From a phage: 64,000 bases of DNA. Positions 15,229-28,905 of this stretch are shown here, one piece after another. Position 1 is the first letter of the stretch; each line of letters starts with the position of its first letter. Location: sequence record PZ445443.1; one strand, 5' to 3'. The notes under the pieces are model-generated. The model was not told where the DNA came from. It ran no database searches and saw nothing but the letters and a program-made list of their open reading frames with translations. The position numbers and the translations under genes are program-made.

Positions 15229-15469
15229 AACACATAGATATTTTAAAATTCTTAGAAAATCAGAAAATGGATCGAAAACTAAAATGGATTTTTTCAACAC
15301 AGGCGCGGAAAATTGTGCCAATCTATCTAGCCGTTTGCACCATATTCGAGATCACCGTTCCAGATTTCCTACACATACACACCTCTCCACCATACCTTTC
15401 TCCACTCACTCTTAGTGATTTATGACGGAAAACCCATCACTATCTTGAAGTTGCGGTGCAGTTTTCCAA

Positions 15470-15556
15470 GTACTCGATCTGTTTTTCGTTTCAAAGATTG
15501 AATTTTCTGAAAATTTTTCTCGATAAATTTCTCAGTACTCGATCTGTTTTTCGTTT
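15470..15556. repeat. direct repeats AGTACTCGATCTGTTTTTCGTTT (two copies, 65 bp apart)
   Basis: Identical 21-23 nt copies at about 15470 and 15535 inside a non-coding AT-rich region with further AAAATGGAT repeats. Confidence 0.6.
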
Positions 15557-15761
15557 TCTGAATCGGATTTTCTGGAAATCGTTCCGGCTCTCGACCTGAA
15601 ATTTTTGGGGACGAAATCGATTTTTCGTTTTCAGAAATGGATTTTTAAAATTTCTATATAGGAATATTTTAGTGGATACTATTTTATAGGAAATTGTTAC
15701 GGAGGGTAATTAGCGTGCTAATTAAATTTATTAAATGTGAGGAGTTCTCATTTAGAATTTT

Positions 15762-15778
15762 GAATGATAATCATTCTC
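15762..15778. promoter_or_regulatory. Fur-box-like palindrome
   Basis: GAATGATAATCATTCTC matches GATAATGATAATCATTATC at 15 of 16 aligned positions. Confidence 0.4.
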
Positions 15779-15892
15779 GTTTGCAGAATAACGGGCAGGC
15801 CCGGTGATTGTCTCCCGGCCCCTGTTGCCCCGGCTTGTTATTATAGTATCACACAGGACAAAGAAAGCAAGGATTTTTTGCATAAATTTTTA

Positions 15893-15917
15893 AATGATAA
15901 TGATAACCGTTCTCATT
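15893..15917. promoter_or_regulatory. Fur-box-like site
   Basis: AATGATAATGATAACCGTTCTCATT contains GATAATGATAA (about 16 of 19 to Fur consensus); second copy of a diverged tandem unit. Confidence 0.35.
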
Positions 15918-16302
15918 TTATGCAGCGCCCATCCCCGGTGGTTGTCTCCCCCGTCACCGGTGCCTGCCGTCCTTTCGATAGGTATATTGTGCTACCTGGC
16001 GGGGCCGCTGTCAACACCTTTCAAAAAAAAAATTATAACCAGGTGCGCCCACTGCCAGTACCTGGCGGGGCCAACCTGGCAGGTCCGCGCTATAAAGTGA
16101 ACAGATGAAGAAGAGGTACATAAATGAAAGGTAATATGATCCCCTGGAAAATGTAGCTATTAATGACGCTGAGGCTATCGCCCTGGTTGAAAAGGCTATG
16201 GCGGGAGCGTTGGAACATAAAGAAGAGTACGAAAAAATGATGGTTAACCTGGCAGGGGCGGCGGCTGGAGAATTCTGCCCAAAAAATAATTTTAACTAAT
16301 GG

Positions 16303-16331
16303 TTGACAGCTCGGACAGTTCTTGTTATTCT
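16303..16331 (+). promoter_or_regulatory. sigma70-like promoter
   Basis: TTGACA, 17 bp spacer, TATTCT. Confidence 0.5.
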
Positions 16332-16383
16332 TATCCTCGCAAGGTGAACAACACCACACTAATTAACAGAGAGGATAAAAATC

Positions 16384-16581
16384 ATGAACGCCTACGGAAT
16401 CAAAGTACGTCGCAGCACTCGCCAGGTGGTCACCGATCAAATGGTTTGCCGGGTGGATGTAACCATCAACAACGGGCAAGGCCTTTATAAATTTCGTCGC
16501 GGTCATAGCTATACCCTGCAACAGCTTAACCGTTGCTCCCTGACAAAAGGTCAGATCAACCACTGGTTTAATAAAAAATAA
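16384..16581 (+). CDS. hypothetical protein
   Basis: ATG after AGAGAGGA RBS, downstream of promoter. Confidence 0.55.
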   Translation: MNAYGIKVRRSTRQVVTDQMVCRVDVTINNGQGLYKFRRGHSYTLQQLNRCSLTKGQINHWFNKK

Positions 16582-16584
16582 ATA

Positions 16585-16613
16585 TTGACATGTGGTCTGA
16601 CACAAAATATACT
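16585..16613 (+). promoter_or_regulatory. sigma70-like promoter
   Basis: TTGACA, 17 bp spacer, TATACT. Confidence 0.55.
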
Positions 16614-25981: not shown

Positions 25982-26401
25982 ATGAATATTAAATCTGATA
26001 ATCCGGCATATAGCTTTGATAACGCTTTTTGTCACGGTCCGGCGGCGAAAGGTTTTGAAATTGATGGTAAACTAGTTATTGTCAATGTTGACGGGGAAGA
26101 GGTTGCAGTGTATCCGGTGGCAGACGTTAAAAGCCGTTTACAATGCCGCATCGATGTTACCGCATATCAGCTTGATCCGGTCCGCGTAGTCTCCCTGGTC
26201 CTGGAGGAAGAAATCAAAGCAATGCACCACAGCAATAAGTTTATCGGTGACGCGCAAGATAATATGAAGGTATGCCGCTATAAAGTTAATGAAGTGCTTA
26301 AAGAATATGGATTTAAGGATCTGATGATCAAACGTGATGAAAAATTTCGTTATCGTAACGACCTGGCAAATCGAATCTATGAAATATACGAATCATTATA
26401 A
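25982..26401 (+). CDS. hypothetical protein
   Basis: ATG after TAAGAGGTAAA RBS; last gene of forward block. Confidence 0.55.
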   Translation: MNIKSDNPAYSFDNAFCHGPAAKGFEIDGKLVIVNVDGEEVAVYPVADVKSRLQCRIDVTAYQLDPVRVVSLVLEEEIKAMHHSNKFIGDAQDNMKVCRYKVNEVLKEYGFKDLMIKRDEKFRYRNDLANRIYEIYESL

Positions 26402-26420
26402 TTTTTTAACTGAATTATCA

Positions 26421-26444
26421 AGGGGCTTAGGCCCCTTTCTTTTT
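26421..26444 (+). terminator. rho-independent terminator
   Basis: AGGGGC-TTAG-GCCCCT hairpin followed by TTCTTTTT. Confidence 0.7.
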
Positions 26445-27052
26445 GTCTGCTCTTCCCCTACCATAAACGGCCATACATGGCAAGTGGAATAATTGACGAG
26501 CCATCAATCCCACACACTGTACAAATATACATGTAAAATAACTATTGCATAACTTTTCATTGTGTGGTAGCAGGGCCATTTTTACACGTTTTTCCTTCCA
26601 AAATTGCACGTAATGCAGCATTTGCACAAAATTTAACCTGATGCATATCTTCAATAGCTTGTCAACAACTAAAAATCTTTATAAGTCATACACTTACATA
26701 ACTACAAAAGCGTTTTCTACGTGAAAAATCGAGTATAACTATAGCCGCCAGACCTCAGAATTTACGTACGCTCGACATTCTATAGCCTGCTAAGCATTTA
26801 TTCCAACCATAGAATAACGGAATAGTCAATACCTGCATAAAATAATTATTCGTGTAAACTGCATAACATAAATCGGCCCAGGTGTCAACATTTTTCGTAA
26901 ACAGTCCGAAATTATCACTATGAGTTATCATAAACAGGGAAATCTTTAGTCGTCTAATGTTTACTGTACATTACTATACTGACTGGAATCATTAGATGAC
27001 TAAGAGAAAGATAAGAAATAATTAACAATACAATTATTTTATCTGTAACAAT

Positions 27053-27322
27053 AAGGCAACTATGCAAACGAATGGCATGGCGCGACGGAGTCGCGACATA
27101 ATATAAAAGCAGTAACCATCACCCCCGTGATAGTTTGTCTGCAAACTATTAATCAGATCATAGTTGCCTTGTATTTAGTTAATCATGACATAACAAGCAA
27201 GGCAACTATAGATCTGCTAATAGTTGCCCTGCTTTTATATTATGTCATAGAAACACCCGAAGGGGTGACCAAAGGTCACCTGGCATGGCCAGTGAAAGAT
27301 TATTAACTTGCTAATAGTTATC
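27053..27322. repeat. array of 11 bp motif AAGGCAACTAT in both orientations (about 5 copies)
   Basis: AAGGCAACTAT at 27053 and 27199; reverse complement ATAGTTGCCTT at 27160; close variants at 27220 and 27314; flanked by duplicated GCAAACGAATGGCATGGC (27064, 27325). Confidence 0.6.
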
Positions 27323-27354
27323 ATGCAAACGAATGGCATGGCTGATTATCGGTG

Positions 27355-27440
27355 TGTAAACAGTCAATCATGTAAATGGTTAGCATGTGAACAATCAGGA
27401 ATGTAAACAATCCAGTGTGTAAACTAATAGGTGTGTAAAA
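27355..27440. repeat. six phased TGTAAAC-like repeats at about 16 bp spacing
   Basis: TGTAAAC 27355, TGTAAAT 27371, TGTGAAC 27386, TGTAAAC 27402, TGTAAAC 27418, TGTAAAA 27434. Confidence 0.6.
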
Positions 27441-28029
27441 GTGTCATGTTGTGTCAGTTAGGTCACATTATGTCATATTGTGTCAGACAAGTTTTTCTCC
27501 TCTTTGTCAAGTGCTGCATGAAAAATTTACAATCTGGTATGGTAGCATTTTTGCGGCCCTGTTTACATTCAGGGGTGTATGTATAATCCTTGTTGTGTGG
27601 GCGTTTAGACGTCTGGACGGTCAGAAGTCTGCAGGTTAATATCTAATCTATTGGCTGCTAACTATATCCCACACAAATAGTAAGAAATATGATTGTTATA
27701 TGCGTAAACTGTAACTCATGTTATCAATCCCTGTATGTATCGCCAGTGGTGCGCATAATGGGTATTATGTTAAATTGCCCGTAATGATAAAGGTTCTCAC
27801 AATGATAGGTATTCTCATTCACCCCCACAAAATAGATTGCAAATGTTGTGCCACTGTGTGAACGGCCTAGCCTATTAATTTGCCTCACTGCCTCGATATT
27901 TGAGAATTGTTATAAGAATGAGAAGTATTCCCATTTCGTCCGCCTGGCAGCACTCCTGTAGGTCAGGTCAAAATCGTGGTAGAACTGGACCTGTTCAGAT
28001 ATTTCTGGCTGACTCTTCAGGTCTGTGTG

Positions 28030-28555
28030 GGAAAAGCCAACCTCTCCGGCGGGGCAGGGGATAGGTCAATTAAAAAATTTACGTGGTGTATGAAGCGCTC
28101 TTCAGGTAAGGCAGGTATTATGGGATGAAACCCTCTTCAGGCAATGATATTTGTGGGTGTGATATTTGCTGGAAAGCCAGATATGACGGGACTCCCGGCG
28201 GGGCAGGGGTGGTACAGACAGGGAAAATATGAAGGATGTGGTTGGGTAGATTGATCAGACAGGTAGAGTATGGAATATGTTACAAGTATGTTAAATATGG
28301 AGGTTGAATATCTGTAGGATTTGTGTGTAAAATCAAAGACTTAAGTGGTGTTGTGGTATTTTCTATAAATAATTCAAGTTTAATAGGTGATATTTGTCTC
28401 TATCCGCTTTGTGTGGTAAACAGATTCAGATGAGATTGGTTTACAAGTGTATACATAATATACAAATTAAAGATACAAGAAACCCCCCTCCCCCTTCGGC
28501 TACCATTCACCTTTTCCTCTGACTGGTACTTAAACACTTATTCAGACTCTTCAGG
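28030..28555. repeat. dispersed direct repeats CTCTTCAGG (x4) and CCGGCGGGGCAGGGG (x2)
   Basis: CTCTTCAGG at 28030, 28115, 28150, 28547; CCGGCGGGGCAGGGG at 28063 and 28212, each preceded by AAAGCCA. Confidence 0.55.
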
Positions 28556-28905
28556 TTATCACCTATATATCATATGGCAGTGACTGGTGTCCTCCGGCCC
28601 CTCTTTCGTCACCCGTCCGCTTCGCCATGCTAATGCCATAGCCAATGGTTCGGTTGTTCACCCTGTTCACTCAGGTGTATCTCCATACCCCTTCAAACCG
28701 AAGAGAACAGAAAACCCGAATTACTCGGTAAAAGAAAAGAGAAGAACTTAATTTTATCAGGATAGGCAAGAATGTCAAGGCATGACTGCTCACTAAACAA
28801 GCAAACAGTCATGTGTGGGAGGTAAGTGATTGTGGTGGTAGGAAATTTAGTTGAAAGATGTGTTATAGGTGCTTCCAGCACTTTAGCCGGGCAGCTAATT
28901 GTGTG

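Follow-up and report, generated by a model that had tools for sequence, protein, structure and literature searches.

The window, by which we mean the whole 64-kb stretch of DNA analyzed here, belongs to an rV5-like Vequintavirus, a virulent coliphage, and carries at 15.4–16.2 kb a non-coding module in which two near-consensus Fur boxes stand in tandem at the starts of ~135-bp units. The preliminary description had reported this arrangement correctly in both sequence and position (GAATGATAATCATTCTC at 15762–15778 and GATAATGATAACCGTTCTC at 15896–15914). As 19-bp sites the two are box 1 (AATGATAATCATTCTCGTT, 15763–15781) and box 2 (AATGATAACCGTTCTCATT, 15899–15917), and a repeat search returned the units as families D4 and D6, with spacings of 136 and 134 nt. 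The GC-rich element said to follow each box was likewise found in both units, as CCCGGTG(A/G)TTGTCTCCC at 15800–15816 and 15934–15950. It lies within two longer minus-strand segments of family D6: segment 1 (15793–15830), containing CCCGGTGATTGTCTCCC, and segment 2 (15922–15967), containing CCCGGTGGTTGTCTCCC. The units align with 73% identity, and the GC-rich core CGGTGTTTGTCTC is kept across genera, far outside the rV5-like phages. Segment 1 folds with z = –2.5 as minus-strand RNA versus +0.4 as plus-strand RNA, and segment 2 contains a hairpin, CCGGTG/CACCGG, with a fold z of –1.4. Further sites accompany the main boxes: one of 15.4 bits overlaps box 2 at a 6-nt offset (15893–15911), and a degenerate box of 10.7 bits, AATGTGAGGAGTTCTCATT, lies 29 nt to the left of box 1 (15734–15752). 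On the left side of the module, downstream of the leftward promoter P3– described below, are three 47-nt iteron-like repeats with ATTTTCnGAAAAT dyads, set in an AT-rich tract (15460–15645; family D1, spacings of 65 and 74 nt). The GC content of this flank is 35% in the window and 24–47% over 13 loci; other genera carry related repeats together with GCGAAAAAATTTTTTAGGGG, and an A6T6 tract occurs downstream of the leftward promoters.

Scoring with a Fur matrix, which had been proposed in the preliminary description, was performed with a palindromic 19-bp matrix obtained de novo by Gibbs sampling of 11 promoter regions under Fur control in E. coli, a set from which mntH was withheld. The training sites score 17.3–23.7 bits, and the validated mntH operator, although excluded from training, scores 19.8 bits. 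Box 1 reaches 23.0 bits and box 2 reaches 22.6 bits, whereas 200 Markov simulations of 64 kb gave a mean best score of 13.3 bits and a highest score of 19.1 bits; both boxes exceed this simulated peak, and chance is therefore excluded. Allowing up to three mismatches, the classic Fur 19-mer has one occurrence in the window where 0.01 would be expected, and box 2 matches the classic consensus at 16 of its 19 positions. In addition, positions 15765–15783 (TGATAATCATTCTCGTTTG) are identical over 19/19 bases to the Fur site of the mntH promoter, which 3,923 E. coli records carry 45–63 nt ahead of the mntH start codon. Among the strongest E. coli sites listed by Chen et al. (2007, PMC2189734) is this mntH site, at 19.9 bits, with Patzer & Hantke 2001 cited for it. 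The box of E. coli ryhB (AATAATAATCATTCTCATT) is a single base away from the phage family box, the correlation between the E. coli Fur matrix and one derived from 20 phage boxes is r = 0.92 (column-permuted controls ≤0.59), and the phage boxes equal or outscore nearly all of the host training sites. Neither the window nor the rV5-like records yielded a phage-encoded Fur: a tblastn search with E. coli Fur gave a best E of 0.11 in the window, and no Vequintavirinae were among the matching phage records. Judged by these sequence comparisons, boxes 1 and 2 are Fur boxes of top quality and predicted operators of host Fur. We consider it very improbable that they are instead operators of a phage-encoded dimeric DNA-binding protein that resemble Fur boxes by coincidence. 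Although the region does hold other repeated dyads (ATTTTCnGAAAAT) with no obvious host regulator, and many small phage proteins are of unknown function, the coincidence would have to extend to the position-by-position fit to the E. coli matrix and to complete identity with a host operator. It would also have to cover the retention of the boxes where the flanking small genes are not retained, and their constancy across host genera that share the common gamma-proteobacterial Fur consensus.

The weaker elements noted earlier at 27.7–27.9 kb were recovered as a second Fur-like cluster (27783–27935), with three boxes at 27783, 27801, and 27917 scoring 14.0, 17.2, and 15.2 bits. All six of the best matrix matches in the window fall in these two non-coding regions. 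The same is true of the five best matches in the whole 134,946-bp genome of the rV5-like phage C7, which occur only at the corresponding two loci and in which the boxes of the second cluster score 16.0, 17.3, and 20.0 bits. This second cluster is kept within Vequintavirus only, and it is enclosed by a 458-bp direct terminal repeat (27486–27944), as judged from the phage YN3 record, which opens and closes with an identical stretch of 458 nt that maps to the window from 27944 to 27486. The record of bov11CS3 likewise begins at 27944. The third box of the cluster ends 9 nt from the boundary of the terminal repeat.

Box 1 is invariant in six rV5-like genomes, and its homologue, scoring 21–25.7 bits, was found in the same position at 16 loci of relatives from several genera. 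Phages of Escherichia, Klebsiella, Salmonella, Pectobacterium, Erwinia, Cronobacter, Serratia, and Aeromonas share this box position. Relatives carry 0–4 extra boxes phased at 29 nt (1–5 boxes in total, with a single box in several of them), arrayed at offsets of –36, –65, and –93, and the degenerate box of the window lies in an equal 29-nt phase. The proximal box holds an exact position relative to neighboring promoter elements in every genus, while box 2 is found in rV5-like phages only. Conservation of the non-coding module far exceeds that of the adjoining genes, and no conserved gene was found under the control of the boxes: the flanking proteins differ across genera, with the exception of one 207-aa protein at variable distance. 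We regard the module as an ancient non-coding control module of rV5-like and related large myophages.

The number and strength of the sites bear on a possible role as a decoy, with regulation of phage transcription not their primary task, in which replicating phage DNA, with at least five top-affinity sites per genome, would titrate Fur off host operators as in a natural Fur titration assay, derepressing host iron uptake and RyhB and so providing, for example, iron for the phage ribonucleotide reductase. Multicopy plasmids with a single Fur box are said, in work by Stojiljkovic et al. from 1994, to derepress fhuF::lacZ. Such a decoy might well take the form of sites that score at or above nearly all host training sites, occur as one to five discrete, non-overlapping palindromes at 29-nt spacing, lie without exception among the strong ones in non-coding DNA, and, through the cluster in the terminal repeat, are present in two copies per chromosome. 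However, a pure sponge needs no particular placement, whereas the position of the proximal box is exact with respect to promoter elements in every genus; moreover, several relatives have one box only, and a literature search found no report of Fur-regulon derepression during infection. Overall, we consider the decoy explanation improbable.

The module contains no coding gene, tRNA, or known RNA family. ORF 198 of rV5 (15764–16108, plus strand), whose ATG lies inside box 1, is spurious: it meets a stop after seven codons in the L024 locus and shows 2-nt gaps in relatives, and most of its substitutions hit codon position 2, the third position showing no excess. Minus-strand ORFs at 15752–15883 and 16090–16605 are junk-like and lack homologues. 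The record of Klebsiella phage K45PH128C2 places a tRNA-Met on the homologous box, but neither the window nor any of six loci, that record among them, yields a tRNA with ARAGORN, and we take the annotation as spurious. A search of Rfam 15 at a permissive E-value returned only a chance match to the Lst thermometer in the window (22 bits versus a gathering score of 126) and none in four relatives. Neither did RNA folding yield a conserved element, as RNAalifold on 12 diverse sequences found three pairs at –0.6 kcal/mol, and fold z-scores ranged from +0.5 to –2.5 with no consistent strand. Conserved structure in segment 1 or in the downstream element (e) was rejected, given no consensus fold and z near 0; the lone covarying helix may represent a single event. 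There is no terminator between 15790 and 16300 in the window; on the plus strand of non-rV5 relatives, a terminator-like hairpin followed by a T-rich tail occurs ~190 nt downstream, and it is absent in rV5-like phages.

On the plus strand, box 1 lies on top of a weak promoter-like site, TTGAAT-18-CAGAAT (15760–15789, 8/12 consensus bases), covering its –35 hexamer and spacer in the classical geometry of Fur repression. Box 2 has no rightward promoter and overlaps no promoter-like site. The –11 A of the rightward site is kept in 8/12 close relatives and lost in 4/12 and in most of the distant ones, and among rV5-like phages the "AG" of CAGAAT are the sole variable bases beside the invariant box 1. 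These features bear directly on the idea that Fur, bound at box 1, represses a rightward promoter, whose product, by analogy to RyhB, might be a trans-acting small RNA or leader with the conserved 5′ region GGCAGGCCCGGUGAUUGUCUC as its seed. The overlap of box and promoter elements is what this idea would predict, as is the near-identity to the ryhB box; the segment just past the predicted start (near 15796) is also the most conserved non-box stretch across genera, and the downstream hairpin of the non-rV5 relatives could serve as a terminator. Moreover, one helix covaries (CCCC/GGGG versus CCAA/TTGG), with G-U pairs that would be A-C mismatches on the opposite strand. Nevertheless, we judge a rightward small RNA to be unlikely. 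Its promoter is weak and loses the –11 A in a third of the close relatives and in most distant ones; the window lacks a terminator, and box 2 lacks a rightward promoter; unit 1 folds unremarkably on the plus strand (z = +0.4), with neither a consensus structure nor an Rfam match; two or three stronger promoters run head-on into the transcript; and the strand composition favors the minus strand. RyhB itself, a Fur-repressed Hfq-dependent sRNA, has a near-identical Fur box at its promoter, but the phage locus shows no homology to RyhB, no Rfam match, no terminator, and no conserved stem-loops.

Three sigma-70 promoter-like sites on the minus strand are conserved in position, and better conserved than the rightward site. 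P1– (TTGACA-17-CACAAT, preceded by a T10 tract; 15986–16014) was found in a promoter scan with 10/12 matches, and its positional homologue has 9–12 of 12 matches in every genus examined. P2– (15840–15870) reads TTGCTT-19-TATAAT with a 19-nt spacer; its homologues, at 10/12 loci, combine TTGCAA, TTGATC, or TTGACC with a 16–17-nt spacer and TATATT, TATTAT, or GATAAT. P3– (TTAGCA-17-AACAAT; 15693–15721) is weak in the window phage (8/12 consensus bases), while in relatives it appears as TTGACA-18-GAAAAT or TTGACT-17-GATACT, always adjoining the distal-most Fur box. At the L004 locus, the scan gives three leftward promoters versus 0.9 expected. Both boxes sit between conserved leftward promoters, at +52 to +80 from one and –75 to –86 from another, which is not the classical placement of a Fur repressor. 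On its plus strand the module is rich in C and T, with a GC skew of –0.01 to –0.32 that is negative in 13/13 loci, whereas the plus-strand genes flanking the module have positive GC skew; the strand composition of the region matches minus-strand transcription. The two ~135-bp units likewise make better sense when read on the minus strand, where the order is promoter, GC-rich leader, Fur box. In other genera, the slot of box 2 is occupied by a perfect CpxR-type GTAAA-N5-GTAAA, 6 nt upstream of the –35 hexamer of P2–, and the slot therefore appears to be a docking site for host regulators of a leftward promoter.

The preliminary description had proposed that the boxes render a phage promoter or small RNA iron-responsive through host Fur. 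The proposal is partly supported: site quality and conservation uphold the boxes as Fur boxes, but the rightward promoter is weak, box 2 is without one, no terminator, Rfam match, or fold was found, and the conserved promoters point leftward. The reading we favor, with roughly even confidence, is that the boxes are genuine high-affinity operators of host Fur within a leftward promoter chain, where Fe2+-Fur would gate non-coding transcription. On the minus strand, P1–, P2–, and P3– would form this chain, each followed by a GC-rich leader and then by a Fur box or array, such that each box would lie ~50–80 nt downstream of one leftward start and ~75–86 nt upstream of the next. In iron-replete hosts, Fe2+-Fur would sit on the boxes and most likely have two effects. 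The rightward promoter would be silenced in the manner of classical Fur promoters, and leftward transcription would be impeded, with Fur serving as a roadblock or masking the AT-rich upstream element of the promoter that comes next. When the host is starved of iron, non-coding transcription through the module toward the AT-rich iterons would go up, and the phages would probably, on this evidence, read the iron status of the host. We infer that Fur binds in vivo, that the transcripts are important to the phage, and that the sign is repression, by far the commonest action of Fur in E. coli. Several points count against this reading: the boxes are not in the classical place relative to the well-conserved leftward promoters, the one promoter in the classical place is weak and its –10 hexamer is not strictly kept, P2– has a long 19-nt spacer, and P3– is a poor match in this phage. 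In addition, for none of the transcripts did the analysis turn up a conserved RNA structure, a terminator, or a target.

The variable number of boxes (1–5) and the cluster at the chromosome end would fit a role outside transcription just as well. One such role would be architectural: the module could be a transcription-activated replication origin, in which a leftward purine-rich RNA enters the AT-rich iterons, and the second cluster could mark a packaging or terminal site, with Fur as an accessory host factor comparable to IHF, which acts at lambda cosB and some origins. The iteron-like repeats and the A6T6 tract downstream of the leftward promoters, the G/A-rich leftward transcripts, the conservation of the non-coding module relative to neighboring genes, and the Fur-like boxes ending 9 nt from the terminal-repeat boundary would each fit such an arrangement. 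To our knowledge, though, Fur has no precedent as a replication or packaging factor. We take nohA and nohB to be terminase small-subunit genes of cryptic lambdoid prophages. The strong Fur sites upstream of both (Chen et al. 2007, PMC2189734) were counted in favor of the architectural role. An origin here is nevertheless at odds with the absence of DnaA and IHF consensus sites, the lack of GATC enrichment, the failure to identify an initiator, and a cumulative GC skew without inflection at 15–16 kb; the authors of the rV5 genome paper could not define an origin from skew. We hold the architectural role to be quite improbable.

We suggest, tentatively and with less than even confidence, that virulent myophages of enterobacteria (Vequintavirinae, Stephanstirmvirinae, and relatives, Aeromonas phages among them) have, as a whole lineage, wired host stress sensors into one non-coding hub: Fur for iron, a CpxR-type site for envelope stress in some genera, and Fur sites also at the chromosome end of rV5-like phages. 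In such a hub, Fur might act as a genuine host factor that, depending on iron status, gates non-coding transcription setting off replication or a developmental decision, or might be titrated to derepress host iron uptake. The rV5-like and related phages are widely used in phage therapy and biocontrol of E. coli, Salmonella, and Klebsiella, and they work in settings where iron is scarce, among them gut, blood, and urine. If Fur controls the module or is titrated by it, iron availability would shift infection dynamics in a manner that could be predicted and engineered.

Phage-borne sites for host regulators have been recognized in other settings. NtcA sites occur in T4-like cyanophages, and the toxin genes tox of corynephage beta and stx1, carried by temperate phages, are iron-repressed under DtxR and Fur, respectively. 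These toxin genes likewise place a host iron-dependent repressor on a phage-borne operator, but in each case a lone operator serves the promoter of a lysogenic-conversion gene and the phage is temperate, whereas the sites described here form conserved arrays in core non-coding DNA of a virulent phage. Control of the lytic cyanophage S-PM2d by PhoB through pho boxes (Rihtman et al. 2024, PMC10976474) is similar in that a host nutrient-stress regulator tunes lytic phage transcription; the pho boxes, however, are upstream of protein-coding metabolic genes, and the targets here appear non-coding. Clusters of CtrA sites in lytic phages of Alphaproteobacteria ("lytic deferment"; Mascolo et al. 2022, PMC9437464) lie in a large intergenic region and also comprise high-scoring sites for a host global regulator, associated with promoters and recurring across lineages. 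The predicted Fur sites of the present phages carry the CtrA-type signature, the best sites being intergenic and, at 16 loci, next to conserved sigma-70 promoters. They differ in the regulator and its signal (Fur and iron rather than CtrA and the cell cycle), in the hosts, in representing one inherited module rather than independent evolution, and in having no phage protein genes directly downstream. Full-text searches and the rV5 genome paper yielded no literature linking Fur or iron to these phages, and no description of Fur sites in them was found; the CtrA and PhoB sites of lytic phages are the closest precedents. If our reading is correct, the ability of lytic phages to read host global regulators, so far CtrA and PhoB, would extend to iron and to enterobacterial phages.

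The phage sites share several features with Fur operators of E. coli (mntH, ryhB, gpmA, and the divergent fepA-fes, fepD-entS, and fepB-entC), including the 19-bp palindrome AATGATAATCATTATCATT, the position of boxes between oppositely oriented promoter-like sites, and, at box 2, overlapping sites at a 6-nt offset. Unlike those operators, the phage boxes are in a virulent phage and appear to control no protein-coding gene. Host sites overlap at offsets of 3 or 6 nt (Chen et al. 2007, PMC2189734), whereas the boxes of the phage relatives form discrete arrays with a spacing of 29 nt.

Both Fur boxes and both GC-rich segments of the tandem pair recorded in the preliminary description were found at its positions, 134–136 nt apart. 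The boxes were scored with a Fur matrix derived by a palindromic Gibbs sampler from 11 E. coli K-12 promoter regions given as Fur sites by Chen et al. 2007 (PMC2189734): the intergenic regions fepA-fes, fepD-entS and fepB-entC, together with gpmA, ryhB, sodA, fecI, fhuF, cirA, fhuA and exbB, with mntH held out. The same best solution (consensus AATGATAATCATTATCATT) was reached in 5 of 12 restarts. Box 1 (15763–15781) and Box 2 (15899–15917) score 23.0 and 22.6 bits, alongside 17.3–23.7 bits for the training sites and 19.8 bits for the held-out mntH operator. Both exceed the highest score among 200 simulated 64-kb sequences (19.1 bits; mean of maxima 13.3 bits), which bears out the Fur-like character first ascribed to them. 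Moreover, 15765–15783 in Box 1 matches, at 19 of 19 positions, an E. coli chromosomal site 45–63 nt upstream of mntH, scored at 19.9 bits by Chen et al. (PMC2189734), who cite Patzer and Hantke on Fur/MntR. Box 1 has a degenerate neighbour (10.7 bits) on its left at a distance of exactly 29 nt. As sequence elements, the two window boxes are predicted Fur operators by computational definition.

Over 1 kb around the boxes, the window is 93–96% identical to over 100 rV5-like coliphages (genus Vequintavirus). Using sensitive blastn, Box 1 and ~60 nt rightward of it were also found at 72–88% identity in phages of several genera and subfamilies (Phapecoctavirus; Mydovirus of Klebsiella; Seunavirus, PVP-SE1; phages of Pectobacterium, Cronobacter, Erwinia, Serratia, Enterobacter and Aeromonas; and phage Av-05), among which the protein genes flanking the boxes are not shared. 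Further box loci were added by exact-pattern scans of IMG/VR. A site of 21–25.7 bits occurs in all 16 of 16 diverse loci at a constant offset from a downstream conserved block, TTTGCAGAATgAC(A/G)GGCA, with zero to four additional Fur sites per locus on its left, strictly spaced at ~29 nt. Twenty distinct phage boxes give a matrix whose correlation with that from E. coli is r = 0.92 (column-permuted controls ≤0.59). The comparison is partly circular because the boxes, though located by phasing, were kept on score. A phage protein with coincidentally Fur-like specificity would read the same boxes, an explanation we consider highly improbable. No Fur homologue is encoded in the window or in any rV5-like record, leaving host Fur as the obvious ligand, and host Fur very probably binds these predicted sites.

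Boxes of 24–25 bits also occur in unrelated IMG/VR phage contigs (L022 at 8028, L026 at 2594, L012 at 1546–1651, L031 at 3760 and 3804, and L007 at 8981). In L022 and L026 the box lies in a divergent intergenic region next to a terminase operon; L012 carries four boxes at 34–37-nt spacing, and L031 two identical boxes within a 44-nt tandem repeat. Fur boxes may occur in more phages than has been described. Temperate-phage toxin genes under host iron regulators, tox (DtxR) and stx1 (Fur), are related cases. The nearest conceptual precedents come from lytic phages: CtrA sites clustered in an intergenic region in phages of Alphaproteobacteria (PMC9437464), and control by PhoB in a cyanophage (PMC10976474). 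Full-text literature searches found no link of Fur to the present phages; Fur and iron are both absent from the rV5 genome paper.

The locus itself is a gene-poor gap of ~0.7–0.9 kb (about 15430–16190) situated within rV5 ORFs 192–205, a series of small genes on the plus strand. The rV5 annotation spans it with 'ORF 198', which we rejected as a gene: its initiating ATG lies within Box 1, one rV5-like contig has a stop in this frame after 7 codons, 2-nt gaps occur in relatives, and substitutions peak at codon position 2. Likewise, ARAGORN found no tRNA at the locus, despite the tRNA annotation in one Klebsiella phage record. That record (K45PH128C2) places tRNA-Met, tRNA-Ile and tRNA-Lys over the non-coding module, at its positions 1511–1664 and 2131–2206; since ARAGORN detects none there, these annotations are probably misplaced. 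Rightward, clear gene conservation starts with a 65-aa ORF (16384–16581). To its left, 16125–16157 carries a well-placed ribosome-binding site, GAAGAGG, followed by ATGAAAGGTAAT, with a stop after 10 codons both in the window and in Mangalyan phage; the small ORFs given for this stretch in rV5 and others differ (ORF 197, 196). Four copies of (T/A)ACCTGGC(G/A)GG(G/T)(C/G)C (15993–16086 and 16246–16259) lie just upstream of small plus-strand ORFs, interleaved with complementary CCAGGT and CTGCCAG; alternative hairpins may form.

The preliminary description had proposed an iron-responsive promoter or small RNA. In favour of a rightward promoter, a plus-strand TTGAAT-18-CAGAAT has its –35 hexamer and spacer overlapped by Box 1, whose centre is at about –25 from the predicted start, the classical geometry of Fur repression. 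However, this site matches the consensus at only 8 of 12 bases, the window holds no downstream terminator, and the locus belongs to no known RNA family. Of 12 close relatives, 8 retain the site's –11 A, and most distant ones have lost it; beside an invariant Box 1, the 'AG' of CAGAAT are the only variable bases in six rV5-likes. No rightward promoter was found at Box 2. A RyhB-like identity was rejected, as the locus has none of the defining features of that family. RNA evidence is weak on both strands: unit 1, the first of the two ~135-bp repeats, folds with z = –2.5 against shuffles on the minus strand and +0.4 on the plus strand, and 12 diverse sequences yielded no consensus structure. In non-rV5 relatives, the downstream element gives z ~0 on both strands. 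It ends with a plus-strand terminator-like hairpin and includes a single helix with a switch from CCCC/GGGG to CCAA/TTGG, two features that leave room for a rightward RNA in those phages. Overall, a narrowly rightward, Fur-repressed sRNA seems unlikely.

Three predicted minus-strand σ70 promoters are conserved in position across genera, with divergent spacers. P1- (16014–15986) is TTGACA-17-CACAAT, with 9–12 of 12 matches in relatives. P2- (15870–15840) is TTGCTT-19-TATAAT, replaced in relatives by TTGCAA, TTGATC or TTGACC with 16/17-nt spacers and TATATT, TATTAT or GATAAT. P3- (15721–15693) is weak in the window (TTAGCA-17-AACAAT); relatives have TTGACA-18-GAAAAT or TTGACT-17-GATACT abutting the distal-most box. 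A promoter scan of PVP-SE1 returned exactly these three, versus 0.9 expected. Composition too favours minus-strand transcription, because coding strands are G-rich in this phage and the module plus strand is C/T-rich (GC skew –0.01 to –0.32, negative in 13 of 13 loci). Aligned on the minus strand, both 135-bp units read promoter, GC-rich leader (GGGAGACAAyCACCGGG), Fur box. Box 1 is centred at about +61 from the P2- start and –86 from that of P3-, and Box 2 at about +71 from P1- and –75 from P2-. Leftward transcription from P3- would next reach an A/T tract and, at 15460–15645, three iteron-like repeats of 47 nt. The repeats are spaced 65 and 74 nt apart and contain two GATC sites as well as dyads of the ATTTTCnGAAAAT type; a plus-strand terminator-like hairpin occupies 15601–15638. 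Other genera carry GCGAAAAAATTTTTTAGGGG and related repeats left of the Fur boxes.

Ten non-rV5 loci (PVP-SE1 at about 1618–1632, K45PH128C2, L003, L017, L019, L020, L027, L030, L078 and L097) carry a perfect minus-strand GTAAA-N5-GTAAA direct repeat, placed 6 nt before the P2- –35 hexamer and at an offset of about +107 to the proximal Fur box. About 0.25 copies are expected by chance per 64 kb, and none occurs in the whole window, 15870–15900 included. The repeat fits the published CpxR consensus GTAAA(N)4-8GTAAA (PMC9603713), and in rV5-likes Box 2 takes its slot. This similarity suggests envelope-stress input into the same module, and would make the slot upstream of a leftward promoter a docking site for host regulators in different lineages. 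Such a shared slot supports a cis-regulatory role of the boxes toward the leftward promoters. A decoy role, titrating Fur, appears rather improbable. In the best-supported reading, to which we give about an even chance, Fe2+-Fur gates σ70 transcription through the non-coding module. Fur at Box 1 would be a classical repressor of the weak rightward promoter. Leftward transcripts would be impeded too, either by Fur acting as a roadblock or by its occlusion of the next promoter's upstream element, and iron starvation would increase transcription into the AT-rich iteron region. We infer both the sign of the regulation and what the transcripts do.

Weaker elements had also been noted at 27.7–27.9 kb, correctly: of the five best matrix matches (16–23.8 bits) in the complete rV5-like genome of phage C7 (134,946 bp), two are the boxes of this locus and the other three are boxes homologous to 27783–27935. 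This second cluster is kept within Vequintavirus only. It sits in a 458-bp direct terminal repeat (27486–27944), its third box ending 9 nt from the repeat boundary. The surrounding 2.4-kb non-coding region (26400–28830), the 'non-coding' box of the rV5 paper, lies where plus- and minus-strand gene blocks converge and is dense in short repeats (tgtgtaaac, gtgtcag, caaacgaatggcatgg). In the phage YN3 record the first 458 nt equal the last 458 nt, both mapping to 27944→27486, and another record begins at the same base, 27944, which together place a physical chromosome end within the region. An architectural role of Fur at an origin or at the termini would suit boxes so placed, yet we think it quite improbable. 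In E. coli K-12, nohA and nohB are genes for the small terminase subunit in cryptic lambdoid prophages. Fur sites upstream of them would therefore lie near prophage cos regions, a parallel to the Fur-like boxes at the chromosome end of rV5-type phages. Strong predicted sites at –133 of nohB (25.3 bits) and –233 of nohA (22.3 bits) are tabulated by Chen et al. 2007 (PMC2189734), the nohA site being confirmed by gel shift.
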